Shown here in pieces: positions 8,405 through 47,575 of a stretch of DNA of 64,000 bases. Source of the DNA: Verrucomicrobium spinosum DSM 4136 = JCM 18804 (lineage in GTDB: Bacteria; Verrucomicrobiota; Verrucomicrobiia; Verrucomicrobiales; Verrucomicrobiaceae); NCBI RefSeq assembly GCF_000172155.1, contig NZ_ABIZ01000001.1, forward strand, positions 2,139,105-2,203,104, in the 5' to 3' direction. The notes under the pieces are model-generated. The model was not told where the DNA came from. It saw only the letters and a program-made list of their open reading frames with translations, and ran no database searches. A program made the position numbers and the translations under genes. Position 1 is the first letter of the stretch; each line of letters opens with the position of its first letter.

Positions 8405-8467
8405 CCCAAAGTAGTCACAGGCTTCAGCCTGTTCAGGTGCGTGGCGGATGTGGTGCGTCGCCCGACC

Positions 8468-11679: not shown

Positions 11680-11789
11680 GTCAGTGCGTCAGTGCGTCAG
11701 TGCGTCAGTGCGTCAGTGCGTCAGTGCGTCAGTGCGTCAGTGCGTCAGTGCGTCAGTGCGTCAGTGCGTCAGTGCGTCAGTGCGTCAGT
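11680..11789. repeat. Octamer microsatellite (GTCAGTGC)x13.6
   Basis: 13 perfect tandem units read directly from the sequence. Followed by gtttttgggttcgaggtaa, the same right flank as the locus at 29045. Confidence 0.95.
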
Positions 11790-11842
11790 TTTTGGGTTCG
11801 AGGTAAGTTGTAGACATGGAGGGGGGCGCTGGGTGGAGGTAT

Positions 11843-11920
11843 CCTGACCGCGTAAACGCGGAACTCCAACCCTGCTGGCGGGAGCGGAGAGGGTTGGAGT
11901 ACCGACTTTAGTCGGCTCAG
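11843..11920. repeat. Hairpin element family A, copy 1 (CGCGTAAACGCG + GGAACTCCAACCCT…AGGGTTGGAGT + CCGAC-TTTA-GTCGG-CTCAG)
   Basis: Three stacked palindromes. The same roughly 78-bp element recurs at 13403 and 29158. Confidence 0.75.
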
Positions 11921-11960
11921 TGGGGCTGTAGGTCGCCGCTCCTGTGGCGGAGACTTTTCA

Positions 11961-13346
11961 TCAATTCCCGTACCCCGTGGAGATCGTGATTTCCAGGGTG
12001 GCGTTCTTAACATCGGTCAGTACTTCGTTGATCAAGTGGACGCTTCCCAAGTGGGTGTCAACTTTGGGGCCTTCTTCGGAGTTGGCGATGACATTGCCAG
12101 AGGGATCCAGCAGCCGGGCAGAGTCAAAGTTTGCACCAATGACATGGAATCCAGTACCCTTGATATCGCCGCCGAGGAAGATCATCACATTCCACTGCGT
12201 GAGCACGGGATGGTCGATGGGCGTGTTCCATTGGCCAGAGCTCCAGGGGACCTGGATGGTTTCGTGCTGAGGTTCAGCGACGAACTGAAAATCTGCGACC
12301 AAGCTAACAATGCTGCCGTCAGCAGCGAGGCCCCAATAGCAAGGTGACTCGCCGGAAGTATCGCCAGCATTTACACAGATTGCGTCTGGATTCTCCGGCG
12401 GTGTTGACCTCAAATGCATGGTCCGGTGCGTCTCAGTGATGTTCTTTCTTATCGGTTCGAGGTACGAGAGATTGAAAAGACGTTCTTTCTCTCTTTTCTC
12501 CAGTGACATCATGGCCCCGGCATCCACAAAGGCGAGATTCATATAGGCTATCTGCGTGTGGTGAGCGCCTCCGTTCACAGTTGGGGCTGGCACCCATGTG
12601 GCGACTTCGCGGTCGGGTTGGAAAACGACACGCGCGGCAGCTCCGTACCCATGGGCGATGGCGAGCTCTACGGGATAATCACCTGGCACAACTGAGCGGC
12701 TCAAGGGAAGGAAGTCATCATTGTCTCTCCCTAGGTCACAAACTCCAATGATACCGGAGGGCAGATGAAGAAGGCCAGCGGATGCCACCTTCAATGGGGT
12801 TTCGAGACCCATGACTCTGATCACCCGGTTGTCTTCAAAAAGCCGACCGCAATTTGGGCTGATGCCGGGCGGCAAATCTGGCAGGGGAGCATCGGGTTTC
12901 ACCATCGCCAGGACTTGGTTCTTGAGCGAGTCCGAGAACAATCGCTCGCCTTCCGGCGCATAGAAGGGTGATACCTTGGTGATCCGCCAGTCGTTGCCCA
13001 CGTGTTTCAACTCATACTCATAGAAGGCAGGAAAATGTTCGGCGTTCTCCGTTTCTATGACCGCGGAATCGATTTCTGCGCTGACATTGATGATGCATTC
13101 GTGCGCTGAATGGTGGGGAGGCTGGCTCCAGGAGAAGCCGAAGCCGAATTCATCTTTTGGGGCATCAGGGGTGAAGTGACGTTGGTGCACCTCTTTGCAG
13201 GCCTCGTTCCATTTCTGGAACGCCACCGGGTCGTAGTCAAAGGGTCCGCTGCCCATGGAGTCCCTGGCTGCAAGCCATTGGAGATACAAGTCGGAAATGT
13301 AGGCGCGGACGCGGGCCTCGGGGCTTTCGAAAATAGGGTCTGCCAT
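11961..13346 (-). CDS. Hypothetical cytoplasmic protein, possibly DUF4241-like middle domain
   Basis: 461 aa with no signal peptide. LLHLPSGIIGVCDLGRD resembles the LPSGxxxxxDP motif of DUF4241 (from memory, low certainty). Flanked by two copies of hairpin element A. Confidence 0.45.
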   Translation of the reverse strand: MADPIFESPEARVRAYISDLYLQWLAARDSMGSGPFDYDPVAFQKWNEACKEVHQRHFTPDAPKDEFGFGFSWSQPPHHSAHECIINVSAEIDSAVIETENAEHFPAFYEYELKHVGNDWRITKVSPFYAPEGERLFSDSLKNQVLAMVKPDAPLPDLPPGISPNCGRLFEDNRVIRVMGLETPLKVASAGLLHLPSGIIGVCDLGRDNDDFLPLSRSVVPGDYPVELAIAHGYGAAARVVFQPDREVATWVPAPTVNGGAHHTQIAYMNLAFVDAGAMMSLEKREKERLFNLSYLEPIRKNITETHRTMHLRSTPPENPDAICVNAGDTSGESPCYWGLAADGSIVSLVADFQFVAEPQHETIQVPWSSGQWNTPIDHPVLTQWNVMIFLGGDIKGTGFHVIGANFDSARLLDPSGNVIANSEEGPKVDTHLGSVHLINEVLTDVKNATLEITISTGYGN

Positions 13347-13402: not shown

Positions 13403-13480
13403 CCTGACCGCGTAAACGCGGAACTCCAACCCTACTGGCGGGAACGGAGAGGGTTGGAGTTCCGCCTTTAGGCGGCTCAG
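13403..13480. repeat. Hairpin element family A, copy 2
   Basis: cctgaccgcgtaaacgcggaactccaaccctactggcgggaacggagagggttggagttccgcctttaggcggctcag. About 92% identical to copy 1. Confidence 0.75.
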
Positions 13481-13518
13481 GGAGAGAGTGAGATTGTCCA
13501 GCGGGTGCTAGTGGCCGC

Positions 13519-20990: not shown

Positions 20991-21020
20991 GTGAGGACTA
21001 GACGCCTGAACCAGTGCGCT

Positions 21021-22470
21021 GCGACACCATCGACACCCTTTTTGGAGGTTCACTGAGAAAGAGAGGAGGTGTTTTTTGGGGTAAGTTGTAAAAAGGGTGT
21101 CGATGGTGTCGCAGAGAGCGAGGTTTTGGGGGTGCTGACTGGATGGCCTGCTCCCTATTGCGCGAGCGCACAGGCTGCCTGCCAAGAAACCGACTCCGGT
21201 TCAGTTCGCAGTTTATCCCTGAAGGGGATATCTAGCACAGCCCAGTGGTTGGACGAGCCTTAAGCGAGTCAACCCTGGGTACCCTCCGCAGAGGATGATC
21301 AGGTGGGAAGGCTGACAGCATTCGCTTTCTTGCCACCGCTTTCAACGCCTCCACGTCAGACGGATGCGATGTCATGTGCTGTCTGACGTTCGCGGCAAGA
21401 TGCCGTGAACAGCACGCAGGGATGCGTGCGCTCCCCGAGCTTCCCATGCACAGGTCATGTTGAGGAACTGCCAGACCGCTACAACTCCTTCGGAGTAAAA
21501 ACCTCCAACACCCGTACCCAACGTAGACTCGCTGGAAGCTCGTCAACGTTGGGCTTGTAGCCCCATCCTCTTCGAGGAAGAACTTCGACTGAGGGCGTGG
21601 ACGGTTGGTGTCTTGGTGGCCACCCCGAGCGTGGGGCTTGGGCAGTTTTTCTTAGGTAGTCAACCACAGGGGTGTCTGTGAACAGGTGTTTTGCGACACC
21701 ATCGACACCCTTTTTACAACTTACCCCAAAAAATACCCCCTCTCTTTTTTTGTGAACCTCCAAAAAGGGTGTCGATGGTGTCGCAGAGAGCGAGGTTCTG
21801 GGTGTGCTGACTGGATGGCCTGCTTCCTATTGCGCGAGCGCACCGGCTGCCTGCCAAGAAACCGACTCCGGTTCAGTTCGCAGTTTATCCCCGAAGGGGA
21901 TATCTAGCACAGCCCAGTGGTTGGACGAGCCTTAAGCGAGTCAACCCTGGGTATCTCCGCAGAGGATGATCAGGTGGGACGGCCGACAGCATTCGCTTCT
22001 TGCCACCGCCATCAACGCCTCCACGTCAGACGGATGCGATGTCATGTGCTGCGTGCGCTCCCCGAGCTTCCCATGCACAGGTCATTTTGAGGAAATGCCA
22101 GACCGCTACAACTCCTTCGGAGTAAAAACCTCCAACGCCCGTGCCCAACGTAGACTCGCTGGAAGCTCGTCAACGGTGGGCTTGTGGCCCCATCCTCTTT
22201 GAGGAAGAACTTCGACTGAGCGCATGGACGGTTGGTGTCTTGGTGGCCACCCCGAGCGTGGGGCTTGGGCGGTTTCCCTTAGGTCGTCAACCACAGCGGC
22301 GTCTGTGAACAGGTATTCTGCGACACCATCGACACCCTTTTTACAACTTACACCAAAAAAACACCCCTCTCTTTTTCTGTGAACCTCCAAAAAGGGTGTC
22401 GATGGTGTCGCAGAGGGCGAGGTCCCGGGGGTGCTGACTGGATGGCCCGCTTCCTATCGCACCAACGCGC
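21021..22470. repeat. Tandem array of a roughly 630-bp unit (2.3 copies; periods 671 and 627 bp, about 94% identity), each unit starting with a 24-bp perfect inverted repeat enclosing a 46-bp loop
   Basis: IR arms TGCGACACCATCGACACCCTTTTT / AAAAAGGGTGTCGATGGTGTCGCA at 21021-21114, 21692-21785 and 22319-22412. The loop in copy 1 is the reverse complement of the loop in copies 2 and 3. Copy 1 has a 44-bp indel. Confidence 0.85.
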
Positions 22471-22540
22471 AGGCGGTCGGCGTGTTGTAGGCCGGGAGAC
22501 TCTGACCGGAACGGTGTGCCCGCGCCTCCTCTCAACCAAC

Positions 22541-22568
22541 AAAAAACCCCGGAAGCTGCCTTCCGGGG
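22541..22568 (-). terminator. Rho-independent terminator downstream of the PVC heme-binding protein gene (hairpin with U-tracts on both strands)
   Basis: aaaaaaCCCCGGAAGctgcCTTCCGGGGtcctttgaatttt. On the minus strand the hairpin is followed by TTTTTTGTTGG. Confidence 0.6.
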
Positions 22569-22611
22569 TCCTTTGAATTTTGACGTTTGAATTTTGAAGT
22601 TTTATTTCCTC

Positions 22612-25600
22612 CTACTGCCCTGGCAGCGCCACTTGGGAGTCGCTCGTCAAATAGGCCATGAGGTTGCGCACCTGCTCGTCGGTCAGCGCCAGCAGCAGTC
22701 CCTCGGGCATCAAGGACACGGGCAGCTCCTGGATGCTGGTGATGTCTCCGCGCTCCACGACCTGCTCCTGGCCCACCATCTTGATGGTGAGGGTGCGGTC
22801 GGTCTTCGCAGCGATGTTGCCACTGAGGATGCGGCCATCCTTGAGGTTCACCACGGACATCTTGTAGTCGGCGGCCAGCGTGGCGCTGGGATCCGCGATG
22901 TTCTCGATGAGGTAGTTCACGTCCTTGCGGCCGCTGCCGGTGAGGTCGGGGCCGATGAGGTTGCCCTCACCGTAGAGCTTGTGGCAGGCGGCGCACACCT
23001 GGTTGAAGATCACCCGCCCGGCGCTGGCGTCTGCCTTGGACACGAGTTCCTTGGTCAGCTTGCCTTTGAGGGCGGCGATGAGTTGCTGCTTGTCGGCACT
23101 GGATTCGCGGATGTCGCCCCACACTTCGGTGAGTTGCTTGTCCAGCTCGGCGTCCTTGAAGCTGCGCATCTGCCGGGCCTGGTAGGGGGTGATGTCCTTC
23201 CGGGGGATCTGGTTGGGAGCCGTGCCCACCTGCTTGAGCATCGCCTTGGCGAAGTTTGCCCGGGAGGTGAGGGTGTCCATCACCGCCGGTTGCTCGTTGG
23301 GGTAGAAGCTGCGGTAGCTCTTGGCCAGGGACTCGCCGATCTTCAGGTCGTCATACAGCGCCAGCCCGCGCACGGCGGTCATGTTCAGATCGCGCGTCTT
23401 GAGCAGCTTCTCGCACACCTCGCGCAGGCCGTCGGCCTTGGCAGCAATGAGGGACTGCAAAGCGTTGCGCCGGGCGGCGAAGTCTGCCTTGTCATCCAGC
23501 ACCAGTTTCTTGATGTCGTCGAGCGCGCGGCCGTCGCCAAAGAGGGCGCTCAGGGCGCGGAGCTGTTCCTGCTGGGTGGCCTCTGACACCTTTGCGGCAA
23601 AAGCATCCCAGGCGGCGGGCTTCTTCGCCTTGGCCCAGCCCTTGAGGCCGTCAGTCATCCCTTGCAGGATGTCGGCGGAGTTCGAGGGGGCAACGTTGCC
23701 CAGCAGGGTGTTGAGCGGAGCCGGGTTAGTCTCGATGTCCTCCGTGCAGCGGCGGGCGATGAACTGGCGGACCAGCGGGATCTGGCACCCGGGCTCCAGC
23801 TTGGCGAGCTCTGCCGGGGGCATGTCCATGATGCCATACCAGTACATCAGCGGCAGGTAGGCGTCCTTGGCATCGTCAGCATGACTTAGGAGCTGGTTGG
23901 CCAGGGCGGGCTTTTCTGCATCGGCCAGTCGGCCAAGAGCGGAGGCCAGATGCAGGCGGACGAATGCGCTGTCCTCCTCCTTGGCGAGGCTCGCCAAGAT
24001 GCGCGCGGTGCGGGGCGTGGGGCCCTCAGCCGTGATGGATTGCAGCACCCAGCGGCGCAGGAATTCGCTATCGGACTTGATCATCTCCGCCACCATGGCG
24101 GCGATGGCATCCTGGGCGGCGGGGGAGTCTGCTCCCAGCAGCCCGGCGTATCCCATGGTCCACCAGGCGTTGAGCTTCTTGGCGGGGGTGGGGGCGGTCT
24201 TGAAGGTGTCGAGCACCTGCTTGGCCACTGCGGGTACTTTGCCGCGGTGGGCGCGCTCGCGCAGCTCCCAGCGGGCCATGCGCACGAGCCACTCGTTGTC
24301 GCTGAGCTGGAGTTTCACCAGCTCTTCATCGCTGAGCTTGGTGACGTCTGTCTCCTTGGGCTTCACCGCATCGCCGTAGGTCACTTTGAAGATGCGGCCG
24401 GAGTTGCGATGCACGCCGTCATTCTCATGGCACTCGCCGATGTCGCTCCAGTCCAGGATATACACGCCGCCGTCCGGCCCGTAGGTGAGCTCCACGCCGC
24501 GGAACCACGTGTCGTCGCTCTTCAGGATGTCGGGCTCATGCTTGCCGACGAAGGTGCTGCCCTGGCGCTCCAGACGTTCCACATTGATGCGGCGTCCGTG
24601 CAGGTTCAGGGTCATCACCTTGTCCCGGTATTCTTTGGGCCAGTTCGTGCCCTGGTAGAGGATCATGCCGACGTGGGCGTGGCCGCCGCCCAACTGGTCG
24701 TTCACACCCACTCCGCCACGGGAGTCCGTCCAGCTCTTGCCGGTATCCCAGTGGTAGTGGTCGGCGATCTGGTCCATGAGCTGGTAGGCCCGGGGATTGA
24801 GATCCTGCCCGTGCATGCGCTTGAGGTGGGCTCCGTCAATGCCGTGCCAGAGGTGGCCGATGACGGTGTTGATGAAAATGAGGTCGCCTGTGGCGGTCCA
24901 GTCATGGCCCCAGGGGTTCGTGGTGCCGTAGCACACGATCTCAAACTTTTTCTGCCCGGGCTGGTAGCGCCACAGGCCTCCAGCAATTCCCTGGCGTTTC
25001 TCCACCGGGGTTTCCGGCGTGCCCACGTAGGACGTGCTGCTGATGCCGCAACGTCCGTAGAGCCAGCCATCTGGACCCCACTTCAGGCCGTTGGCAAAGG
25101 TGTGCCGACTGGCGGCCTGGGTGCTGAAGCCGTCCAGCATGACCTGCGGAGGACCGTCAGGCTTGTCGTCGCCGTCCTTGTCCGGGATGAAGAGCAAATG
25201 AGGCGGGCACACGGCCCAGACGCCACCCAGGCCACGCTCGATGCTGGTGAGCATCTGCACCTCATCTGAGAACACGGTGCGTTTGTCGTATTTGCCGTCG
25301 TTGTCCGTGTCCTCGAAGATGAGGATCCGGTCACGAAGCTTCATGTCGTAGCGCTCTTTGGTGTCGGAGTAGGTGAAGTTCTCCGCGACCCAGAGGCGGC
25401 CTTTCTCGTCCCAGCAGCAGGCGATGGGATTGTTGACGTCTGGCTCTGCGGCGAAGAGCGTGGCTTTGAAGCCCTGAGGAAGGTTCAGCTTCTTGAGCGA
25501 CTCTTCTGCGGTCGGGAAGGGTATGGTAAGAGGCTGGTTGTCTGGTGGTACCGGGAAGTCTCCCGTCGCGAAAACGGGCAGGGCCATCGCGACCGTCAGG

Positions 25601-25650
25601 CAGGACGCCCCTAAGAGGGCGATTCGTGAGAGGGTGTTGCAGTAGGGCAT
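22612..25650 (-). CDS. PVC-type heme-binding CxxCH protein / membrane-bound dehydrogenase domain protein (GSDH-like beta-propeller + HEAT repeats + C-terminal cytochrome c)
   Basis: 1012 aa. Signal peptide. N-terminal FAAEPDVNNPIACCWDEKGRLWVAE. HEAT-like LHLASALGRLADAEK. C-terminal CAACHKLYGEG heme motif. Confidence 0.8.
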   Translation of the reverse strand: MPYCNTLSRIALLGASCLTVAMALPVFATGDFPVPPDNQPLTIPFPTAEESLKKLNLPQGFKATLFAAEPDVNNPIACCWDEKGRLWVAENFTYSDTKERYDMKLRDRILIFEDTDNDGKYDKRTVFSDEVQMLTSIERGLGGVWAVCPPHLLFIPDKDGDDKPDGPPQVMLDGFSTQAASRHTFANGLKWGPDGWLYGRCGISSTSYVGTPETPVEKRQGIAGGLWRYQPGQKKFEIVCYGTTNPWGHDWTATGDLIFINTVIGHLWHGIDGAHLKRMHGQDLNPRAYQLMDQIADHYHWDTGKSWTDSRGGVGVNDQLGGGHAHVGMILYQGTNWPKEYRDKVMTLNLHGRRINVERLERQGSTFVGKHEPDILKSDDTWFRGVELTYGPDGGVYILDWSDIGECHENDGVHRNSGRIFKVTYGDAVKPKETDVTKLSDEELVKLQLSDNEWLVRMARWELRERAHRGKVPAVAKQVLDTFKTAPTPAKKLNAWWTMGYAGLLGADSPAAQDAIAAMVAEMIKSDSEFLRRWVLQSITAEGPTPRTARILASLAKEEDSAFVRLHLASALGRLADAEKPALANQLLSHADDAKDAYLPLMYWYGIMDMPPAELAKLEPGCQIPLVRQFIARRCTEDIETNPAPLNTLLGNVAPSNSADILQGMTDGLKGWAKAKKPAAWDAFAAKVSEATQQEQLRALSALFGDGRALDDIKKLVLDDKADFAARRNALQSLIAAKADGLREVCEKLLKTRDLNMTAVRGLALYDDLKIGESLAKSYRSFYPNEQPAVMDTLTSRANFAKAMLKQVGTAPNQIPRKDITPYQARQMRSFKDAELDKQLTEVWGDIRESSADKQQLIAALKGKLTKELVSKADASAGRVIFNQVCAACHKLYGEGNLIGPDLTGSGRKDVNYLIENIADPSATLAADYKMSVVNLKDGRILSGNIAAKTDRTLTIKMVGQEQVVERGDITSIQELPVSLMPEGLLLALTDEQVRNLMAYLTSDSQVALPGQ

Positions 25651-25950
25651 GGGCAGGTCTGGGAGCTGAAAAGCAAGGCATCGCCCGCTGGCAGCGGTGA
25701 GGGCGCTTCCGGGCGGGCGGGAGATTTACAACGGTCCCAAAACTGAAACCCTGTCGTGCAACTTGCTCAGAAGGGTGAGCACATCGTTGCATTCGGCAAG
25801 AGGAGGACGCCCCAATAAGCTGGGGGATGCTCTGTGAAGTGCTCAGAATGAGTGAATTACATCGCTTCTGGAGGCGTGGCATATTCACCGCTGGAAAGGG
25901 GTGAGAATGGTTGCCCCACCGGGCCGCCGGATTCCAACCCCTGTACCCAT

Positions 25951-26164
25951 GAAACTCATTCTTTCGGCACTGACCCTGGGAACCGCCCTCGCACTGAGCA
26001 GTTGCGAATCTCCGCCTCCTCCGCCGACGGTGACGACCCAGACGACGACGGAAACTGTTCGTACAACCTTAAGCCCGGTCACGACCACGACAGGCAACGT
26101 GACGACCTATCATAGTCCGGCACGGCGTTCAGTGACGACCACGGAGACCACGACCTTGCGCTAA
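25951..26164 (+). CDS. Small Thr-rich lipoprotein
   Basis: MKLILSALTLGTALALSSC lipobox, then PPPPPTVTTQTTTETVRTT…. A hairpin plus TCTTTCTT follows at 26208-26246. Confidence 0.4.
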
Positions 26165-26322
26165 GAACCTGCGGTCTATGCAGGTCGGGCGGCAGATGTC
26201 CCCTCTGAACAACCCGGTGGCGGCAATGCGCCCCACCGGGTCTTTCTTATACAAATGTGACATTTCAGACGGTGGTCTGGCAGTTTTTCAACAACCGTCT
26301 GGCGGGGGAAACCCGCTTCGGT

Positions 26323-26700
26323 TTAAGAACCGTGCTGGATCAGCTCGATCTCGTAACCTTCAGGGGCATCGATGAACGCAAATTTGCCGCTGGAGCTCTG
26401 GGTGGGGCCATCGGAAAGCGGGTAGCCCTTCTCAGCGGCATGCTTGGCAAACGCCTCCAGATCATCCACCTGGAAGGCCAGGTGAGTGAGGTCTGGGCCC
26501 ACGACCACAGGGCCGCTGGCAGGATAGCAGCAGATCTCCAGCAGTTCCTCGCTGCCGGGTGTTTTCAGGAAGACGAGCTCGGAGCCCCGCGGAGACTTGT
26601 GACGTCTCACCTCTTCCAGCCCCAGAACGTCTTTGTAGAAGGAGATCGTCTTGTCCAGATCGGCGACGCGATAGCGGGTGTGAAGGAGTTTGGTGACCAT
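26323..26700 (-). CDS. VOC family protein (glyoxalase/bleomycin-resistance fold)
   Basis: HTRYRVADLDKTISFYKDVLGLEEV…THLAFQVDDLEAF…GYEIELIQ. Confidence 0.75.
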   Translation of the reverse strand: MVTKLLHTRYRVADLDKTISFYKDVLGLEEVRRHKSPRGSELVFLKTPGSEELLEICCYPASGPVVVGPDLTHLAFQVDDLEAFAKHAAEKGYPLSDGPTQSSSGKFAFIDAPEGYEIELIQHGS

Positions 26701-26859
26701 GATTGGGAGCGATAGGGTAGAACTGGAATACGGGCAAGGACCGTTTGGTGGACTGGACGAGATGAAACAATCGTATTAGATAAGATTTCATGGCGGGCGG
26801 TAAAAGACCCCGCTATAGGCACGATTCGTCTCTCTTCTTCATCTCCTCACCTCACTTCC

Positions 26860-28365
26860 ATGTCCACCTATTACCTCGGCATCGACAGCGGCACCCAGAG
26901 CTCCAAAGCGATCGTGCTGGAATTTGAAACCGGTCGGATTGTTGCCCACGCGAAGCGGGAGTATGACCTGATCCCCGGCCTGCCGTCGGGCCATCTGGAG
27001 CAACATCCGCAGGACTGGATCGATGCCATCAACGGCTGCATCACGGACTGTCTGGATCAACTGGGCACCGGGCGATCCCAGGTGGCGGGCATTGGCGTGA
27101 GCGGCCAGCAGCACGGTCTGGTGGTGCTGGATGGGGAGGATCAGGTGGTGCGCCCTGCGAAACTGTGGTGTGACACCTCCACCCAGGAGCAGTGCGCGGA
27201 GATTGCCCACGAGTTCGGTGGGCAGCCGGGCTGCATTTCCCTGGCCGGGAATGCCATGCTGCCGGGCTACACCCTGCCGAAAATCCTCTGGCTGAAGCAG
27301 AACGAGCCGCAGAATTTTGACAAGGTGAAGACCATCCTGCTGCCGCATGACTACATCAACTTCTGGCTCAGCGGGGTGAAGCGCATGGAATACGGTGATG
27401 CCAGCGGCACGGCCCTGCTGGATGTGCGGACGCGGGAGTGGTCCAAGGAACTGGCCGACTTCATCGATCCGCGCTTGATCGACATGCTTCCTCCAGTGGG
27501 CTCCTCCAATGAGGTGCACGGGACCCTCCGCCCGGATCTGGCCAAGCAGTGGGGATTGAGCGAGAGCGTCATCATCAGCGCCGGTGGCGGTGACAACATG
27601 ATGGGCGCAATCGGCACCGGCAACGTGAAGCCCGGTGTGATCACTGCCAGCTTTGGCACCAGTGGCACGCTTTACGGCGTGGCGGATTCGCCCGTGGTGG
27701 ATGGTCAGGGCGAAGTGGCGGCTTTCTGCGACAGCACCGACCAATGGCTGCCGCTGGTGTGCACCATGAACGTCACCGTGGTGACGGAGCAGATCCGCGA
27801 GATGTTCGGCTGGACGATTCCGCAACTGGAAGCCGCGGTGGCCAGCGCTCCGGTGGGAGCGGGCGGCGTCACCTTCCTGCCGTATCTGAATGGCGAGCGC
27901 ACGCCGAACCTGCCCAACGGAACGGGCGTGCTCCACGGACTGCGCACCACGAACATGAGCCCGGCCCATCTGGCCCGCGCCGCGGTGGAAGGGGCCACGC
28001 TGGGCCTCGCCTATGGCTTGAAGCGTTTCCGCGAACTCGGCCTGTCTCCCAGTGAGATCCGTCTCACTGGCGGGGGCAGCCAGAGCGCCGTGTGGCGTCA
28101 AATTGCGGCCAACGTCTTCAATGCGGAAGTGGTCACTCTGGCCACGGCCGAGGGTGCGGCGCTGGGCTCCGCCATCCAGGCGGCATTCGCACTGCTCAAG
28201 CAGCAGGGCAAGGTGAGCAAGTATGAGGAACTAACGGACCGCCTCGTCGCGCTGGACGAAAGCACCCGCTGCAAGCCGGAGCCGGAGGCGGTGGCTTTCT
28301 ACGATGCGCAACTGGAAAAGTTCACCGGGCTGACACGGCGCCTGCACGAGGTGGAATACCTCTAG
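26860..28365 (+). CDS. xylB: Xylulokinase (FGGY carbohydrate kinase)
   Basis: YLGIDSGTQSSKAIV…GVSGQQHGLVVLD…FGTSGT…GGGSQSAVWRQIAANVF are canonical XylB blocks. Confidence 0.85.
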   Translation: MSTYYLGIDSGTQSSKAIVLEFETGRIVAHAKREYDLIPGLPSGHLEQHPQDWIDAINGCITDCLDQLGTGRSQVAGIGVSGQQHGLVVLDGEDQVVRPAKLWCDTSTQEQCAEIAHEFGGQPGCISLAGNAMLPGYTLPKILWLKQNEPQNFDKVKTILLPHDYINFWLSGVKRMEYGDASGTALLDVRTREWSKELADFIDPRLIDMLPPVGSSNEVHGTLRPDLAKQWGLSESVIISAGGGDNMMGAIGTGNVKPGVITASFGTSGTLYGVADSPVVDGQGEVAAFCDSTDQWLPLVCTMNVTVVTEQIREMFGWTIPQLEAAVASAPVGAGGVTFLPYLNGERTPNLPNGTGVLHGLRTTNMSPAHLARAAVEGATLGLAYGLKRFRELGLSPSEIRLTGGGSQSAVWRQIAANVFNAEVVTLATAEGAALGSAIQAAFALLKQQGKVSKYEELTDRLVALDESTRCKPEPEAVAFYDAQLEKFTGLTRRLHEVEYL

Positions 28366-28396
28366 CCTTGGCCCGGTTTCACTCGTAGAGAATTGC

Positions 28397-29044
28397 GTGG
28401 CAAAGATAAGGCTCAAGAATCCCGGACGTCCGGTGGCATGGTTGATCCGTGCCATCGGCAACACCCTGAAGTACCGCATCATCAACCGGGCTGGCATGGC
28501 TTACCCGACGGATGAGCGGCACATCTGGGTGTTCTGGCACAACCGCATGTTCCTCATTCCCTGGCTGCGGCAGAACTTGATTCCCGGTCAGGAGGGGGCC
28601 TTCCTCACCAGCCCCAGCGGGGATGGGCAGATTATTGCCGAGGCCTGCTCGGACTTCGGGCTCAAGCCGGTGCGCGGCTCCAGTTCCAAGCGGGGTGCGC
28701 AGGCCATGGTGGAGCTGGCGCATTATGTGAAGACCGGCCATGACATCGGCATCACCCCAGACGGACCCCGCGGGCCGAAGTACCACATGAACATGGGCGT
28801 GATCAAGCTGGCCCAGCTCACCGGTGGCAAGCTCATGCCGGTGCACATCCGCTACGACAAGGCGTTCACCTTTAAGACCTGGGACGGATTCCAGCTGCCC
28901 CTGCCGTTCTCTGGCGTGGAGATTGAGTTCGCTGAGCCGTTCTCGGTTCCCCGGAGGATGACCGAGGAGGAATGCGAGGCGCAACGTGCGGAACTGGAGC
29001 GGATCCTGCGGGAGGGAACGAGGGAATTTCCGGTGGATCGGTAG
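28397..29044 (+). CDS. DUF374 / lysophospholipid-acyltransferase-family protein
   Basis: VFWHNRMFLIPW…SPSGDGQIIAEACSDFGLKPVRGSSSKRGAQAM…ITPDGPRGP matches the DUF374 conserved core. Confidence 0.7.
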   Translation: MAKIRLKNPGRPVAWLIRAIGNTLKYRIINRAGMAYPTDERHIWVFWHNRMFLIPWLRQNLIPGQEGAFLTSPSGDGQIIAEACSDFGLKPVRGSSSKRGAQAMVELAHYVKTGHDIGITPDGPRGPKYHMNMGVIKLAQLTGGKLMPVHIRYDKAFTFKTWDGFQLPLPFSGVEIEFAEPFSVPRRMTEEECEAQRAELERILREGTREFPVDR

Positions 29045-29107
29045 GTCAGTGCGTCAGTGCGTCAGTGCGTCAGTGCGTCAGTGCGTCAGTGCGTCAGTGC
29101 GTCAGTT
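29045..29107. repeat. Octamer microsatellite (GTCAGTGC)x7.8, starting at the base after the TAG stop
   Basis: Direct reading. Same unit and same right flank (gtt.gggttcgaggtaa) as the locus at 11680. Confidence 0.95.
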
Positions 29108-29157
29108 GGGGTTCGAGGTAACCTTTATTGAATGGTAAGTCGTGGGCCGGAGTGGGG

Positions 29158-29307
29158 TGACCGGGTAAACGCGGAACTCCAACCCTCTCCGTTCCGCCAG
29201 CAGGGTTGGAGTTCCGTCTCGCATGCGGGACGGTCAGGGTACAAATACCCAGTGCGTTGCATTGCAGAAAGAACTCAGTTTTGGAGTATCGCCTTTAGGC
29301 GGCTCAG
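29158..29307. repeat. Hairpin element family A, copy 3 (inverted loop, 70-bp internal insertion)
   Basis: gaccgggtaaacgcggaactccaaccctctccgttccgccagcagggttggagttccg…cgcctttaggcggctcag. The loop is the reverse complement of the copy-2 loop. Confidence 0.65.
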
Positions 29308-29408
29308 GGAATTCTGAGTGGTGCGGGGGCATTGTGCTGAAATCGACGGTCGTCCCCATTTCCCACCCCGGGACTTGCCGCCCAGCCTGGCGCGTGTTAG
29401 GGACATTC

Positions 29409-30290
29409 ATGCAGTTGATCAAAGGATCTGAAGTGGCCGCCAAGGTGCTGGCGGAGTGCCAGCAGGACATCGCCGCCCTGGCTGCCCAGGGGCACAAGCC
29501 CGGGCTGGCCGTCGTGCTGGTGGGGGATGATCCCGCGTCCCGCGCCTATGTGCGCAGCAAGGACAAGAAGTGCCGCGATCTGGGGCTGCACTCGGTGAAG
29601 CTGGAACTGCCGGCCGAGACGACCCAGGAGGAACTGCTGGCGCACATCGCCTCCCTCAACGCCGATCCTGCCATTCACGGCATTCTCGTGCAGAGCCCGC
29701 CTCCCAAGCATATCGATGAGAGCGCCGTCGTGCTGGCCATTGATCCCCGCAAGGATGTGGATGGATTTCACCCGGTGAACGTGGCGAAGCTGGCGCTGGA
29801 GGATTCCTCCGGATTTGTGCCCTGCACGCCGGCGGGCTGCCAGCGGTTGCTGCTGGATGCCGGTGTGGAAACCAGCGGGGCCAAGGTGGTGGTGCTGGGA
29901 CGCAGCATGATCGTGGGCAAGCCCATGGCGTTGCTCCTCATGGCCAAAGGCAAAGGGGGGGACGCGACCGTGACGGTGGCTCATTCCCGTACGAAGAATC
30001 TGGCTGAAGTCACCCGCGAGGCCGACATCATCATCGCCGCCATCGGTCGGCCGAACTTTGTCCGCGCCGAGCATGTCAAGGAAGGTGCGGTGATCATCGA
30101 CGTGGGCATCAACCGCGTGGAAGACCCGGGTTCAGAAAAAGGCTACAAGATCGTGGGTGATGTGGCCTTCGACGAAGTGGCCCCCAAGTGCCGCGCCATC
30201 ACCCCGGTGCCCGGCGGTGTGGGCCCGATGACCATTGCCATGCTCATGGCGAACACGATCAAGGCCTGCAAGCAGTTGGTTGGGGCTTAG
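29409..30290 (+). CDS. folD: Bifunctional methylenetetrahydrofolate dehydrogenase/cyclohydrolase
   Basis: Start at [35 protein letters not shown]…[16 protein letters not shown]…[18 protein letters not shown]…[14 protein letters not shown]. Confidence 0.9.
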
Positions 30291-30292
30291 TC

Positions 30293-30420
30293 GGTGCGTT
30301 GGTGCGTTGGTGCGTTGGTGCGTTGGTGCGTTGGTGCGTTGGTGCGTTGGTGCGTTGGTGCGTTGGTGCGTTGGTGCGTTGGTGCGTTGGTGCGTTGGTG
30401 CGTTGGTGCGTTGGTGCGTT
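30293..30420. repeat. Octamer microsatellite (GGTGCGTT)x16, starting 2 bp after the folD stop
   Basis: 16 perfect units read directly. Confidence 0.95.
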
Positions 30421-30439
30421 GATTTGCGTGTTATCTCAT

Positions 30440-30704
30440 GAACCCGGAGGGTTCGCCATGAGTAGCCATGGGTCGGCGGAGCGTAGCGAGGCCTACCCAT
30501 GGAAGTCTGGACGAAGGTTTCTACCGCGCAGGGGTAGGCCGATCGCGTTGCGAACCCCACACGAGATCCCGCCACACCACCCACTCAGACTTTGGTCGCC
30601 ATGGGCCTACCGCTCCGCGGTAGAAATCTCCATGTTGCTGTCCACGGGTAGCCATCGCTTCGTTCGGTCCACCCGTGGCTACTCATGGTGAACCCTCCGG
30701 GTTC
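30440..30704. repeat. MITE-like element with 34-bp terminal inverted repeats and nested internal palindromes (265 bp)
   Basis: Left end gaacccggagggttcgccatgagtagccatgggt, right end acccgtggctactcatggtgaaccctccgggttc (32/34 complementary). Internal tctaccgcg…cgcggtaga and ggcctacccatgg…ccatgggcctac. Confidence 0.55.
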
Positions 30705-30766
30705 GGCGTATGATGGAAGGTTCTAGGTGGTGACGACTTGGTCAGGGTGGGAGGTTGTTCGTAGTT

Positions 30767-30840
30767 CAAACTTTAGTTTGCTCAGTTTGCGGAATATCCC
30801 CTGAGGCAAACTAAAGTTTGAACTACGAACAGAGCCTCGC
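30767..30840. repeat. Perfect long hairpin (25-bp arms, extendable to about 30 bp)
   Basis: gttcgtagttcaaactttagtttgc…gcaaactaaagtttgaactacgaac, with ctcag…ctgag extending the stem. Confidence 0.8.
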
Positions 30841-31020: not shown

Positions 31021-31070
31021 AAGCGGGCGGATTCTCCTCCGCCCGCTCTGTTTGGTTTTTGTTTTCGGTT
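31021..31070. terminator. Bidirectional rho-independent terminator (serves the flotillin gene on the minus strand)
   Basis: GCGGGCGGAttctccTCCGCCCGC with A/T tracts on both sides (tctgtttggtttttgttttc on +, ttttgatat on -). Confidence 0.5.
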
Positions 31071-31102: not shown

Positions 31103-32899
31103 TTAGTTTAACTCACTTGCCGGGCGCTGTGGCAAGGTGTCGCGCTTCACCATCATGGCCATGAGGGCATCCAGGAGGCCGCTGCCACCCTGGGCACCTG
31201 TGACGGCGACATCGGGCACGACGCGGACGTTGCGCTCGCCGATGATCTGCATGAGCTGGAGCATGGCGTAGTTCTGGTGGCCCAGTGACTCAACACCTGC
31301 CGTATAGGCTTCGGCCTTGGCGGTACCGGTGGCTCGAATGGCGTCGGCTTCACCATTGGCCCGCAGGCGGATGCTTTCGGCCTCACCCTCGCTCTTGCGC
31401 ACGCTGGCACGGGCTTGAAGTTCGGCGATCTGCACGCCCTGCTCTGCGCCCACCACCTGATGCTGAATGTCTGCGAGTGAGGTCTGGCGTACCAACTGCT
31501 GGCGTTGGGTCTCCGCCGCCTCCTGCATCTCATAGGTCTTGCGCTGCTCCTCCGCAATCTTGCGATCCGTCTGCGTCTTCATGAGTTGCTCGGGCGGGGT
31601 GATGTCGCCGATCAAAGTGTCGATGGCCTCCACATCGTACTCGCGCAGGGCGGCGGCAATGTGTTCCGCGGCCTCCGACTGGCGGTGACTGCGGGCACTG
31701 AGGAAGTCGAGCACGGTGTAGTCCTGGGCGGAGTTTCGGAAGTAGTTGCCCACGATGGGCTGCAGCACGTGGTCGATGAGGTTTTGGAGCGAGCCGGCGC
31801 GGCTGATCACTTTGGGAGCTTCGAGGGCGCCAATGTGAATGATCTGGGACACGTCGAGATTGAAAGCGAAACCGTCACGCGAGCGCACGGTGATGGAGCT
31901 GAGCTTGGCATCAAACTGGTGCGACTCCGTGCGGGTGGCCCAGTTCAGGACGATGTTGGTGGTGGGAACCAGCTCCACGCGCATGATGCGGGTGTTGAGC
32001 GGGTGTTTGCCCGGGTAGAGAGGGGAGATCCAGACGCCCTTGTGCCCGGGCAGGACGAGGTCGCCGTGCTTGAAGTCCACGCCGCTCACGTCCTCATGGG
32101 CTTGTCCAACGTAGGAAATAACAACGCCAACGTGGCCGATGGGGATCTCCACCATGGGCACCTGCTCGACCTGGGCAAACCAGGGGTTGAGGTTCCACAC
32201 GCCGCTCAGCAGAACCTGCTCCTGCAGGCCGCGGTGGCCTTCACTGTCGAGGAAGGATTGCGCGTTCTGGAAGTTGTCGTGCCCGGGGATGCTCGTGCCC
32301 GCGATCTCACCTTCTGCGATGGGGGCACCGTCCAGGGTGGTGACAATGCCCACGCGATCAGGCTCTACCTTGTAGAGTCGCAGCATCTCGGGGTTCAGGC
32401 CGTGATCCGTGGCGTTCCAGGAGGTGATCACGGTGAAGAGGGCGGAGTTAATCCGGTAGGTGCCGGCGGTAAGGATGGCGAGCTGGCGGCCTTTCTCCCC
32501 GCCTGCCGCCAGGAACGCCCGGGCGTTCTCAAAGTGGTTGCAGGGCACGGTGCGACCGAGGATTCGACCCGGAGGGATGGGGGCGCCGGCGGCGGCCACG
32601 ACGAGGGCAATCTCACCGGAGGGCACATAGGTGAGCGGCAAGTGAAGGATTCGGTACTGCCACTTCCAGTAGAAGAAGTGCAGGCCGGGCGGGAGCACAT
32701 CCGCCTGGTAGCCGGCCTCGCCTTTCAGCGCGATGATCTGCCCCGGGGGGAGGTTGCGCATGGCGAAGCGCTTGATGACAATGCCGACCTTCTGCTCCCC
32801 GATGTAAACAACACCAAGGAAGTACCAGAGGGCGATGAGGCTGAGGGGGATTTTCAGCCACCAGCTGTTCCAAATGAACTCTAAGATGTTCGTGATCAT
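31103..32899 (-). CDS. Flotillin-family (SPFH/band-7) protein
   Basis: Start set at the ATG at 32899 (MITNILEFIWNSWW…, N-terminal TM). Long SPFH domain, then a coiled-coil AEA-rich tail (EAAETQRQQLVRQTSLADIQHQVVGAEQGVQIAELQARA…) typical of YqiK/FloA-like flotillins. Confidence 0.8.
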   Translation of the reverse strand: MITNILEFIWNSWWLKIPLSLIALWYFLGVVYIGEQKVGIVIKRFAMRNLPPGQIIALKGEAGYQADVLPPGLHFFYWKWQYRILHLPLTYVPSGEIALVVAAAGAPIPPGRILGRTVPCNHFENARAFLAAGGEKGRQLAILTAGTYRINSALFTVITSWNATDHGLNPEMLRLYKVEPDRVGIVTTLDGAPIAEGEIAGTSIPGHDNFQNAQSFLDSEGHRGLQEQVLLSGVWNLNPWFAQVEQVPMVEIPIGHVGVVISYVGQAHEDVSGVDFKHGDLVLPGHKGVWISPLYPGKHPLNTRIMRVELVPTTNIVLNWATRTESHQFDAKLSSITVRSRDGFAFNLDVSQIIHIGALEAPKVISRAGSLQNLIDHVLQPIVGNYFRNSAQDYTVLDFLSARSHRQSEAAEHIAAALREYDVEAIDTLIGDITPPEQLMKTQTDRKIAEEQRKTYEMQEAAETQRQQLVRQTSLADIQHQVVGAEQGVQIAELQARASVRKSEGEAESIRLRANGEADAIRATGTAKAEAYTAGVESLGHQNYAMLQLMQIIGERNVRVVPDVAVTGAQGGSGLLDALMAMMVKRDTLPQRPASELN

Positions 32900-33608
32900 A
32901 AAATGCAGGGTAATGAGGTGCGAGGGGAATCTTGGATGACGATATGAGTGGTAGTTTCCTGGTGTCCCGTTTGCAGACGAGAGAGCGAGGCGTGGGCCTT
33001 GGGCGCACGTATTCCCTGTGCCGTTGACCCGGAGGCGGACCTCCGGCGGAGACACCAGATGGAATTGGGGGCGTATTACCGCGAACCGTGTCGCGGTGGC
33101 ACGGGAAGATTCAGAACCTGAACCCTAGGGCGCGATGGGGCGCAGGAAGGGCTGGTGGGATGACGGACTGCCGTGCAGCCGTCGGTGAATGGCGTGGCGC
33201 CGGTGCGTTGAGCAGTTGGCGCTGGCTGGGTATTTCATGTTCTCGTTGACCTTGCCGAACGAGACGGTCACCCGCCACGTGCAGCATGTTGCTGTTGGGG
33301 AGACCATGAAGCCTGCGAAGCAGACCCCAGAGAGATCGTCCCTCCCAAAATTGCCTGCGAGGTTAGCTGACGGGCTGGACCTTGGAAGTGGTCCCTGCAA
33401 GCGGTTGCCCGCTTCGTTCGCCCCGTCCTGATTCTCTTGCGAAAACCAGGAGTTCGGTTCCCCCGCGCCACTACTGAGGAAGCAGTAATGACTTCGGCTG
33501 ACAGTGGGATGTTATTCCATGGACCTTTTTTGTCAAATGGAACCGGTGACACCCCGGGCGGACCCTGCGCAAGTCCTTGTGATTCATGCTTGAAGTTGCG
33601 GGCGTTCG

Positions 33609-45884: not shown

Positions 45885-46550
45885 GTGGGGAAGAGCCGTC
45901 CCGGCTCTTGGGGGAGCTGGGTGGTGCGTGGACAAGAACCGAGACGGTTCTTCTACCATGGCGGTTGCCCGCGAGAGAGAAGGTAGAGGAGCCGTCCCGG
46001 CTCTTGGGTGCGCTGGATGGTGCGGGGACAAGAACCGGGACGGTTCTTCTACCCTGGCTGATGTCCGCGAGAGGGAATGTGGAAGAGCCGTCCCGGCTCT
46101 TGGGTGCGCTGGGTGACGCGTGGACAAGAACCGGGACGGTTCTTCTACCGTGGCGGTTGCCCGCGAGAGAGAAGGTAGAAGAGCCGTCCCGGCTCTTGGG
46201 TGCGCTGGATGGTGCGTGGACAAGAACCGGGACGGTTCTTCTACCGTGGCGGTTGCCTGCGAGAGAGAAGGTAGAGGAGCCGTCCCGGCTCTTGGGTGCG
46301 CTGGATGGTGCGGGGACAAGAACCGAGACGGTTCTTCTACCGTGGCGGTTGCCTGCGAGAGAGAATGTAGAAGAGCCGTCCCGGCTCTTGGGTGCGCTGG
46401 GTGACGCGTGGACAAGAACCGGGACGGTTCTTCTACCGTGGCGGTTGCCCGAGAGAGAGAATGTAGAAGAGCCGTCCCGGCTCTTGGGTGCGCTGGGTGA
46501 CGCGTGGACAAGAACCGGGACGGTTCTTCTACTATGGCGGATTTCCGCAC
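45885..46550. repeat. REPIN array: 7 tandem 96-bp units, each GTAG + AGAGCCG-TCC-CGGCTCT hairpin, 26-nt spacer and inverted AGAACCG-GGA-CGGTTCT hairpin
   Basis: Unit starts at 45890, 45986, 46082, 46178, 46274, 46370 and 46466 (exact 96-bp period). Fills the whole DUF1501-RAYT intergenic space. Confidence 0.9.
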
Positions 46551-46573
46551 GTAGCTTAGAGCTGTGAGGATAT

Positions 46574-47302
46574 TCAAGTGTTGGTTCCTTCGCTCAACTG
46601 CCTATTGCTCCCCACATATTCTGGATGTTCGCGAATGTAGTTCCGGATTCGCTCCAGACTGGCGCGGCTGCGCACGATGTGGTCGAAAGACTCGCGTTGC
46701 CATACCCTGCGATTCGGAAAATGAGATCGCAGCCCAGGCAGATGATCATCGATGATTTTGTTGAGTCGATGCGCTGAGTAGGACTTCCAAGAATGCAGAA
46801 TCTTGGAGAGATCATGTTCGGGATTTGGCGTCAAGATGGCGTGGACATGGTTTGACGCTACGACGTACTCGTCCAACTCGTAGCGAGCTCCAGCAAAATG
46901 ACGGATGGTTTGGGATGCGGAGTCCTTTGCGGGTTGATGGCTTAAAAGGCATGAACCACTGTTTGCATCCAACCAGCGCTGGAGACGCCTGGGAAATCGA
47001 TCATAGTACTCCTGACGGGTTAGCTTGTCATGAGGTTCGGGATGGCGCTTGAGCCAGTCTTCTCGATCCAGATGCCATTGATGTAGCTTGTCTTGAGGCA
47101 AAGCATCAGCCAGTCGAAAGGTGATGAAATAGGTCGTCGAGGCCTGCCTCCAATGTGGAAGATTCCCCGAAAGCACTTCTGTCGGAACGAGCTCTGAGTA
47201 GTAGACCCGGCTCTCATCTGGATTGGGAACGGGTTTATCCGGGGAATCCATGCGAAAACGAAGTGGCAGGTGTGCGGTAAAAGCCTGCCCATGTTGCGCC
47301 AT
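46574..47302 (-). CDS. REP-associated tyrosine transposase (RAYT; IS200-like HuH Y1 family)
   Basis: YYSELVPTEV… leads into the N-terminal TnpA_REP-like segment. HuH motif VVASNHVHAIL. WQRESFDHIVRS Tyr region. 242 aa, typical RAYT size. Flanked on both sides by REPIN arrays. Confidence 0.8.
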   Translation of the reverse strand: MAQHGQAFTAHLPLRFRMDSPDKPVPNPDESRVYYSELVPTEVLSGNLPHWRQASTTYFITFRLADALPQDKLHQWHLDREDWLKRHPEPHDKLTRQEYYDRFPRRLQRWLDANSGSCLLSHQPAKDSASQTIRHFAGARYELDEYVVASNHVHAILTPNPEHDLSKILHSWKSYSAHRLNKIIDDHLPGLRSHFPNRRVWQRESFDHIVRSRASLERIRNYIREHPEYVGSNRQLSEGTNT

Positions 47303-47319
47303 GGTTTGGTTGGGCGCAA

Positions 47320-47575
47320 CCGACTCTTGGGAGTGCTGAGCCGTGCGGGGGCAAGAACCGGGACGGTTCTTCTACCCTGGCTGATGTCCGCGAGGGGGAA
47401 AGTGGAAGAGCCGTCTCGGCTCTTGATGGCGCTGAGCCGTGCGGGGGCAAGAACCGGGACGGTTCTTCTACCCTGGCTGATGTCCGCGAGGGGGGAAAGT
47501 GGAAGAGCCGTCTCGGCTCTTGATGGCGCTGGGCCGTGCGGGGCCAAGAACCGGGACGGTTCTTCTACTGTCCGG
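47320..47575. repeat. REPIN array (2.5 units of the same 96/97-bp unit) on the other side of the RAYT gene
   Basis: caagaaccgggacggttcttctaccctggctgatgtccgcgagggggaaagtggaagagccgtctcggctcttgatggcgctg repeats at 47352, 47448 and 47545. Confidence 0.85.

Follow-up and report, generated by a model that had tools for sequence, protein, structure and literature searches.

A 64,000-nt stretch of the Verrucomicrobium spinosum DSM 4136 genome (contig NZ_ABIZ01000001.1, positions 2,139,105 to 2,203,104 of the forward strand; here called the window) carries five arrays of short tandem repeats, and both the position and the strand of such arrays are non-random. Four of the five lie directly 3' of the stop codon of a plus-strand gene, and three related genomes show the same pattern at 17 loci, metagenomes at about 120. 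We put even chances on the arrays being long-unit simple-sequence repeats that are kept perfect by slippage and copied between loci, rather than gene-specific elements of 3' untranslated regions (UTRs).

Placement of the arrays at gene ends

Arrays in the window were located with Tandem Repeats Finder (TRF), and the genes upstream of them were checked with Pfam.

11680-11789, plus strand: octamer array (GTCAGTGC)x13.8, 100% identity copy to copy
28397-29044, plus strand: DUF374 gene
29045-29106, plus strand: octamer array (GTCAGTGC)x7.8, 100% identity, beginning 0 nt past the DUF374 TAG stop
29409-30290, plus strand: folD gene
30293-30421, plus strand: octamer array (GGTGCGTT)x16.1, 100% identity, beginning 2 nt past the folD TAG stop
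56556-57125, plus strand: GNAT acetyltransferase ORF; homologues suggest that the true start lies near 56637
57144-57229, plus strand: octamer array (GGAGTGAT)x10.8, 100% identity, beginning 18 nt past the GNAT TAG stop
58624-59421, plus strand: SDR oxidoreductase gene, its protein 100% identical to one from V. spinosum
59428-59504, plus strand: compound 7/14-nt array (AGAAATT, then AATTAGGAATGATG), beginning 6 nt past the SDR TGA stop

All five arrays are intergenic, as judged by open reading frame (ORF) and Pfam mapping and by two gene-calling schemes, and their unit length is no multiple of three. The four octamer arrays consist of 7.8-16.1 head-to-tail copies at 100% identity, and the heptamer/14-mer array is compound. 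An initial annotation of this DNA had placed four arrays just 3' of plus-strand stops, and the distances of 0, 2, 18 and 6 nt bear it out. Its further statement that all five arrays share a position holds for four of them. The 11680 array has a minus-strand gene on either side. It lies upstream of ORF 11091-11630, whose GTG start is 50 nt away, and the stop of gene 11961-13346 is at a distance of 171 nt; the array is an exception to the after-stop rule, and its strand polarity is that of the other four arrays. The 8-nt unit, likewise described as shared, is common to four arrays, one of the five having a 7/14-nt period.

In a genome scan, one genome per species was searched for (GTCAGTGC)3. 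The comparison set consisted of 8-kb blocks of Verrucomicrobium sp. BvORR034, BvORR106 and one metagenome-assembled genome, which were analysed with TRF and two home-made gene callers, one using codon log-odds and the other G+C content at third codon positions (GC3). Arrays were oriented so that the G+T-rich strand reads 5' to 3'. A sense stop lay no more than 25 nt before the array start in 16 of the 25 Verrucomicrobium-set arrays, and an antisense stop in none (16:0). Four arrays without a sense stop (the window's 11680 array, L073, L075 and L085) have a divergent gene start 24-81 nt off on the 5' side. Chance is excluded, because at all 14 independent loci the array was nearer to its 5' ORF boundary than to its 3' one (medians 5 vs 292 nt; sign test p = 6e-5; combined p = 2e-12). 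A second, independent scan, of metagenomes for (GGAGTGAT)3, gave 26 arrays at sense stops and 0 at antisense stops; in 14 of the 26, the gene's own stop is ahead of the array. The initial annotation had argued that the placement exceeds chance, and had named a lack of positional bias among arrays elsewhere as grounds for abandoning the idea; at the other loci the bias was present, and the placement proved to be general. We also considered that a preponderance of plus-strand genes might create the strand effect. This was rejected: called genes in the window number roughly 24 on the plus and 22 on the minus strand, so the placement is no by-product of a dominant gene strand. Among stops, TAG was over-represented before arrays (9/11 vs 22/93, p = 2.5e-4).

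GC skew is positive along the whole window, and because its sign is the same in plus- and minus-strand genes, the plus strand of the window is most likely the leading strand. The G+T-rich strand coincided with the G-skewed strand, inferred to be leading, in 16 of the 17 Verrucomicrobium-set arrays with a usable skew estimate, and all five window arrays, that at 11680 included, follow this polarity. Arrays seem to be restricted to the ends of leading-strand genes. G+T richness on the mRNA-sense strand, which the initial annotation had stressed, is thus present and at the same time confounded with the G-skewed strand; in the Verrucomicrobium lineage the two descriptions are indistinguishable. 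Wenzhouxiangella, Longimicrobium and Streptomyces showed no consistent relation between array and skew, and a replication-strand rule reaching beyond Verrucomicrobium was rejected on that ground.

Multi-locus arrays of the GTCAGTGC octamer were also present in unrelated genomes, namely Longimicrobium, Wenzhouxiangella, Dehalococcoidia, a Chloroflexia genome and Streptomyces, and in these groups other than Streptomyces long sense ORFs run up to the array or stop just within it. In Actinobacteria (L007-L116, including Streptomyces) the orientation is reversed, the sense strand reading (TGACGCAC)n at gene 3' ends, and the array contains the gene's TGA stop, in many cases as its first TGA (e.g. 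L008, L054, L060, L062 and L074). The octamers GTGCGTCA and GGAGTGAT were found at gene ends in Verrucomicrobiota, Gemmatimonadota, Chloroflexota, Gammaproteobacteria, Actinobacteria and cyanobacteria. Many metagenome GGAGTGAT arrays are followed a few bases on by an inverted array (GGAGTGAT..ATCACTCC), and such a pair would form a long hairpin right after the stop; examples are in L130, L139, L168, L184, L198 and L221. The cyanobacterium Moorena producens 3L carries (GGAGTGAT)x5 (L103 5895-5934), i.e., the unit of the V. spinosum GNAT array, along with arrays of the GAGTGCT/GTGAGTGC type.

Turnover at orthologous loci and joined repeats

The BvORR034 segment (L113) orthologous to window positions 22389-30395 is 91.5% identical in nucleotide sequence, and both of its arrays are present and perfect. 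The DUF374 array has 7.8 copies in V. spinosum and 6.8, after a TAA stop, in BvORR034; the folD array is (GTCGGTGC)x13.4 or more in BvORR034, compared with x16.1. Its unit is GTGCGTCG throughout in BvORR034 and GTGCGTTG in V. spinosum, where the opening unit is TCGGTGCG, the sister-species type. As this first V. spinosum unit has kept the C type, the rest of the folD array appears to have been swept by a single substitution. Copy numbers differ likewise between the orthologues L109 and L090 (16.2 vs 5.1). At the GNAT site, L244 (82-84% identity) has only GGAGTGATGGAGTG, 1.75 copies, and lacks an 80-bp module; L245 (88-94% identity) has 4.9 copies and the module, and V. spinosum has 10.8 copies and the module, which is inserted exactly at the 3' end of the array. 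The initial annotation had called for a comparison of unit counts across strains; between these related genomes the counts differ at orthologous loci. At the SDR site, L245 has a short heptamer array and then a (GGAGTGAT)x3.9 array not found there in V. spinosum, and on the 3' side of the arrays the two sequences are unrelated. Positions 59509-60121 of the window, directly 3' of the SDR heptamer array, hold a 147-bp tandem repeat (x4.2, 92% identity) that is missing from the same spacer in L245.

More distant syntenic relatives, with FolD 88-90% identical (L122, L123 and L247), lack the octamer arrays. L122 and L123 carry no array where DUF374 and folD end; in L122 the DUF374-folD gap is 29 nt and the gap from folD to the next gene 5 nt, and spacers around folD in syntenic relatives measure only 5-181 nt. 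L247 has nothing after folD, and its DUF374 stop is followed by a heptamer-built hairpin (L247 2421-2495). L246, with a 92% identical FolD, has AATTAGGAATTAGGAA (AATTAGG x2.3) at the folD stop, the TAG stop lying inside the first unit. The suggestion of a 3' UTR element was not sustained as stated: syntenic relatives lack the octamer arrays at the corresponding gene ends and the unit changes between lineages, so that the arrays are not conserved 3' UTR elements of these genes. By sequence comparison the arrays are lineage-specific and fast-changing, with the post-stop position occupied repeatedly by different units. They may also be able to rewrite the extreme 3' end of an ORF: the last seven codons of the V. 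spinosum DUF374 gene look as if built of degenerate octamers (TCCGGTGG ATCGGTAG), the BvORR034 version of this tail contains TCGGTGAG twice, and the tail is missing in L122 and L123. The arrays thus mark the edge of fast-evolving intergenic zones in which gene 3' ends can, it would seem, be rewritten.

In V. spinosum the folD/Band_7 spacer, of 812 bp, is a stack of nested repeats; in the syntenic relatives the folD/Band_7 interval holds extra genes, and the folD spacers are very short (5 nt in L122). An independent short-read contig (L001, SRR9495412) carries folD and terminates in both flanking arrays. The folD contigs in short-read assemblies of close relatives (L001, P0001-P0003) are only about 1.0-1.2 kb long, and array-caused breakage at the gene ends probably accounts for those other than L001 as well. 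In practical terms, the arrays break short-read assemblies at gene ends and are ready-made high-resolution typing markers.

The 3' ends of several arrays are joined to shared linkers and dispersed modules, none of which figured in the initial annotation; nor did the replication-strand orientation or the 11680 exception.

11790-11806, plus strand: linker A0, second copy, following the 11680 array
29107-29121, plus strand: linker A0 (TGGGGTTCGAGGTAA), joining the array end in fixed phase (..GTGCGTCAGT/T..)
29158-29310, plus strand: module A, a dispersed hairpin element (GTAAACGCGGAACTCCAACCCT..AGGGTTGGAGT), behind A0
30422-30444, plus strand: linker B0 (ATTTGCGTGTTATCTCATGAACC), following the folD array
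30440-30704, no strand assigned: element B, 265 bp, palindromic and like a miniature inverted-repeat transposable element (MITE), with long terminal inverted repeats, behind B0

Further copies of linker A0 were found in L019, L046, L068, L113 and L119, and of linker B0 (consensus TTGCG.GTTATCTCATGAACC) in L042, L058, L059, L090, L109 and L117. Eleven of 12 GTGCGTCA-type arrays close in one phase (..GTCAGT; ..GTGCGTCAGT) on A0 or B0, whereas the phase at their 5' junction is variable. Module A has other copies at 11845-11923 and 13405-13483. Its loop and stem are inverted between copies (GCTGGCGGGAGCGGAGA vs CTCCGTTCCGCCAGCA) and the flank orientation is unchanged (11852-11905 vs 29165-29215; also 13412-13465), so that the palindrome looks as if it had been flipped in place. 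Element B has terminal inverted repeats of about 34 nt (GAACCCGGAGGGTTCGCCATGAGTAGCCATGGGT and ACCCGTGGCTACTCATGGTGAACCCTCCGGGTTC) and copies in L117, L109, L090, L085 and L042. Wherever the contig covers that side, the octamer array is on the same side of the element, and the units at the aligned copies are GTCAGTGC, GGTGCGTT, GGTGCGTC or GGAGTGGT. Element B resembles a MITE in its terminal inverted repeats, small size and many copies; as to target-site duplication, no direct repeat flanks the aligned copies.

The repertoire of units is small: GTGCGTNN, GGAGTGRT and AATTAGG. The compound array GAATTAGGAATGATGAATTAGGAATG (AATTAGG/AATGATG) recurs at unrelated loci of other genomes, and the pattern of the 59428 compound array was also seen in L073 and L027. 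Other repeats were noted as well. A 69-bp near-perfect palindrome (GTAGTTCAAACTTTAGTTTGC ... GCAAACTAAAGTTTGAACTAC) at 30760-30828 is also present in L119. Three tandem copies of a 627-672-bp unit (pieces 86-96% identical) fill 21007-22600, between genes ending at 20915 and 22612, and share sub-modules with the repeat at 8460-8572 and with the 80-bp module by the GNAT array. In L058 (7354-7393) and L042 (700-737 and 1004-1052), degenerate octamers (GACGGTAA GTCGGTAA ATCAGTAA TTCAGTAG ACCGGTAG), each with a stop codon, lie between the gene and the perfect array and supply stops in all three frames. L042 also has an inverse array, (TTTACCGT)n, on the far side of the half MITE.

Competing explanations

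If the arrays are slippage-maintained simple-sequence repeats, their history would run as follows. The 5' end of an array, read on the G+T-rich strand, abuts an ORF boundary, in V. spinosum nearly always the stop of a gene transcribed along the G-skewed strand. Slipped-strand mispairing would expand, contract and homogenise the array; arrays would stay perfect because this homogenising continues, and a single base change could sweep a whole array. The array's 3' end would open a zone of fast turnover, holding shared linkers, palindromic MITE-like modules and hairpins of the repetitive extragenic palindrome (REP) class, and new gene ends would receive copies of the few units in the repertoire, in many cases together with the linker next to them. 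The arrays would then be a lineage-specific repeat load and not a regulatory part of folD, DUF374, GNAT or SDR. Transcripts would be affected, if at all, in a generic way, by a 3' tail that is C-poor and weakly structured and by a C-rich, unstructured antisense RNA. This account is supported by the anchoring and polarity described above, by the copy-number and unit changes at orthologous sites, and by the missing octamer arrays in more distant syntenic relatives. Copying between loci is suggested by the shared array-linker junctions, the four units beside copies of element B and the recurrent compound array, and the turnover zone by the unrelated DNA beyond the arrays and the module at the GNAT site.

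Several observations weigh against this account. The data cover 64 kb of the source genome and loci that were chosen for holding an array. No one simple polarity rule covers all taxa, because the orientation in Actinobacteria is opposite. Replication slippage, one of the causes proposed in the initial annotation, fits the copy-number series and leaves the anchoring at stops unexplained; slippage or neutral drift alone does not explain array starts 0-7 nt from a stop, the TAG excess, or the same few units in unrelated phyla. Two lineages appear to have gained arrays of different units independently at the folD stop, which suggests a hotspot or selection; selection would also fit arrays that stay perfect over a nucleotide divergence of 8.5%.

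A number of familiar roles for such arrays were examined and rejected. Sense RNAs of the arrays folded no better than dinucleotide shuffles, the one exception being the GGAGTGAT array with a weak fold of -6 kcal/mol; for two of the units there is hardly any folding, and the antisense RNAs are essentially unstructured, so RNA structure is not a shared property. A terminator and promoter scan found no hairpin with U tract in the arrays, only G-T-wobble self-matches in the folD array, and the arrays were rejected as intrinsic terminators for want of a G+C-rich hairpin with a U tract. A canonical bidirectional intrinsic terminator is located at 31022-31047, about 600 nt downstream of the folD array, near the end of the Band_7 gene. 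At the gathering threshold, Rfam gave no match to arrays or modules; the single match in the window is a cyclic di-AMP (ydaO-type) riboswitch elsewhere (RF00379, 33337-33509, minus strand, 60.8 bits, E = 1e-11), upstream of the gene for a 650-aa SPFH/Band_7 protein (31103-33055, minus strand). The longest G run in any array unit is 1-2, and G-quadruplexes, which take at least four runs of at least three G, were rejected. A phase-variation switch would be sited within an ORF or between the elements of a promoter; of the five arrays, four are placed after stops, so that action by frame shift is impossible for them. Identity with REPs or bacterial interspersed mosaic elements (BIMEs), imperfect palindromes of 20-40 nt, was rejected too, the arrays being direct repeats with folds like those of shuffles. 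The REP hairpins of the V. spinosum genome are a family different from the octamer arrays, and they accompany a transposase gene in the window.

46574-47302, minus strand: Y1 (IS200-like / REP-associated) transposase gene, 242 aa, with REP-associated tyrosine transposase as its best NCBIfam match

Tandem units of 96/97 bp adjoin the Y1 gene on either side (x6.8 and x2.4), giving a REPtron-like unit at 45890-47568. Each unit comprises two inverted REP hairpins preceded by GT(A/G)G, GGTAGAAGAGCCGTCCCGGCTCTTGG and GGTAGAAGAACCGTCCCGGTTCTTG; the flanks are made of these REP hairpin units, not of octamer arrays. A further REP copy is present at 57352-57382. The gene and hairpins indicate that the V. 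spinosum genome has machinery for single-strand-DNA repeats. A search of solved structures with the Y1 transposase gave no match.

We think it rather unlikely, though it is the foremost of the alternatives, that array, linker and, in some cases, palindromic module together form a non-autonomous mobile element that inserts 3' of stops, preferably (G)TAG, in one orientation. Transfer would be by single-strand DNA transposition (IS200/IS605 or REP-associated Y1), or by a one-ended or retro-type process leaving a variable repeat tail. A single-strand-DNA mechanism is conceivable because the window has a Y1 transposase with GT(A/G)G-flanked REP hairpins; however, the Y1 protein scores 57 bits, under the curated cut-off of 80 for REP-associated tyrosine transposases, and nothing ties it to the octamers. 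The junction cGGTAG/GTCAGTGC is common to five independent loci (29040-29044, L019, L117, L119 and L058), and TAG stops are enriched, yet G before TAG is common at the stops of this genome (19/35) and some arrays follow TGA or TAA stops. Such an element would also account for the fixed 3' and variable 5' junction phase, for copies of element B with the array on one side, and for the same units at new loci in relatives. Orientation tracks the replication strand, as it does for IS608-type elements, which use the lagging-strand template. Against this, the arrays are not palindromic and have no subterminal hairpin, neither a target-site duplication nor a clean empty-versus-filled pair with defined ends was found, and the 1.75-unit proto-array at the GNAT site, without the module, looks like growth in situ. 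Somewhat less probable again is a selected 3'-end signal indifferent to the unit, in which the C-poor sense RNA resists Rho loading and the C-rich, G-poor, unstructured antisense RNA loads it, stopping transcripts that arrive from downstream, or in which the arrays are sites for single-strand RNA-binding proteins. Sense units with 0-2 C per 7-8 nt and antisense folding energies of about 0 to -11 kcal/mol suit such a signal, as do the strict gene-relative orientation in several phyla and metagenomes, the perfect arrays shared across the divergence noted above, and the tenure of one post-stop position by different units in different lineages; for the repeats of Rehm et al., transcript starts and stops were commoner than at control repeats (PMC4692102). 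A signal of this sort is hard to reconcile with the missing octamer arrays at the same gene ends of close syntenic relatives, or with the reversed orientation in Actinobacteria. Nor are convergent gene pairs favoured: with about 6 convergent and 6 co-directional, the tally is what chance would give. Lagging-strand genes, which would need equal protection, have no arrays after them, and GCACUGAC has no YC dinucleotide, the preferred Rho contact. Rho sites, as the initial annotation had proposed, run counter to the C-poor sense strand, since a site at which Rho loads has the opposite composition.

Bacterial RNA that is not translated favours R-loops, as does a G-rich non-template strand, and R-loops destabilise repeats. 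The birth and growth of arrays could in this way be coupled to the end of translation, the first ribosome-free, G-rich nascent RNA forming an R-loop and the exposed G+T-rich non-template strand slipping. We consider this improbable: it would explain the position, at the first nt past the stop, and the strand, but leaves unexplained the shared linkers and recurring units, the absence of arrays after lagging-strand genes and the arrays near divergent gene starts, and AATTAGG-type units are not G-rich. That the arrays act as phase-variation switches or ordinary intrinsic terminators, or form G-quadruplexes as suggested for the heptamers of Xanthomonas and Nostoc, is scarcely credible. The positional rule is common to the published G-quadruplex repeats, and the 11680 array does lie upstream of a gene start; but the G runs are too short, four of five arrays have neither reading frame nor promoter spacing to shift, and the true terminator lies 600 nt on from the folD array with its wobble matches. 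There is, finally, a small chance that the anchoring of short-unit arrays at stops is a general, strand-specific bacterial process with a dedicated cause so far undescribed. Candidates are an element or enzyme that seeds ORF ends with units drawn from a small genomic repertoire, and repeat genesis coupled to the end of translation. A cause of this kind, if true, would jointly explain the cross-phylum octamers, the TAG excess, the TGA inside Actinobacterial arrays and the separate acquisitions at the folD stop.

Comparison with known systems

A search of the literature on V. spinosum repeats returned nothing relevant, but similar arrays are known elsewhere. Rehm et al. 2015 (PLoS One e0144275, PMC4692102) described GGGAATC repeats in Xanthomonas and GGGGAYT repeats in Nostoc that obey the same positional rule: the mean distance is 28 nt to the neighbouring ORF on the 5' side and 160 nt to the one on the 3' side, regardless of how that ORF is oriented. 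Those repeats differ between close species; G-quadruplexes were proposed and the function was left open by the authors (PMC4692102). Like them, the V. spinosum arrays are intergenic tandem arrays with a unit that is no multiple of three, lie nearer the 5' ORF, vary in length and sequence at the same sites in close species, and have inverted-pair counterparts. They follow the Rehm rule, with the exceptions 24-81 nt from a divergent gene start. They differ in that the units are mostly 8 nt with no capacity for quadruplexes, that the G-skewed-strand bias of 16/17 was not seen by Rehm et al., and that shared linkers and MITE-like modules adjoin the arrays.

Long simple-sequence repeats with 5-11 nt units are thought to originate by polymerase slippage (Mrazek, Guo and Shah 2007, as summarised in PMC4679880). 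The V. spinosum arrays match what that summary describes in being perfect, head-to-tail, intergenic, many per genome and present in free-living bacteria; stop anchoring, strand polarity and fixed repeat junctions do not, as far as could be found, feature in the descriptions of these repeats. Arrays akin to these long repeats include the short tandemly repeated repetitive (STRR) heptamers of cyanobacteria. The TAACTGA heptamers of Beggiatoaceae, cyanobacteria and Bacteroidetes lie just upstream of start codons (MacGregor 2015, PMC4679880), and some overlap upstream stops, the unit carrying stops in all frames. The V. spinosum arrays share with them short-unit, intergenic direct repeats, a strict position at ORF boundaries and an occurrence in distant phyla; in contrast, the TAACTGA repeats appear to replace the ribosome-binding site before starts, and the V. 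spinosum arrays come after stops.

REPs and BIMEs with their REP-associated tyrosine transposases (RAYTs) are also extragenic and at gene 3' ends, and the GGTAG/array junction recalls the GT(A/G)G or GTAG motif of REPs. The arrays, however, are direct repeats, not palindromes, and nothing links the Y1 transposase to them. In eukaryotes, microsatellite-bearing MITEs and short interspersed elements (SINEs) carry a variable simple repeat, in fixed phase, at the head or tail of a conserved dispersed body. The arrays are alike in having a variable repeat joined in fixed phase to a dispersed body, the array and linker here being putatively mobile; we know of no bacterial equivalent of these elements. 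More generally, a 2025 survey found tandem repeats to be enriched downstream of prokaryotic stop codons (PMC12418385).

In sum, long-unit repeats at stops are a kind already known, and the V. spinosum arrays are a new, non-quadruplex case of it in the Verrucomicrobiota. Since arrays incapable of forming quadruplexes obey the rule, stop-proximal, strand-specific placement does not depend on G-quadruplex formation; the main published rationale for the rule is thereby removed. The rule itself extends from the Xanthomonas and Nostoc heptamers to octamers in the Verrucomicrobiota and, by the scans, in many other phyla.

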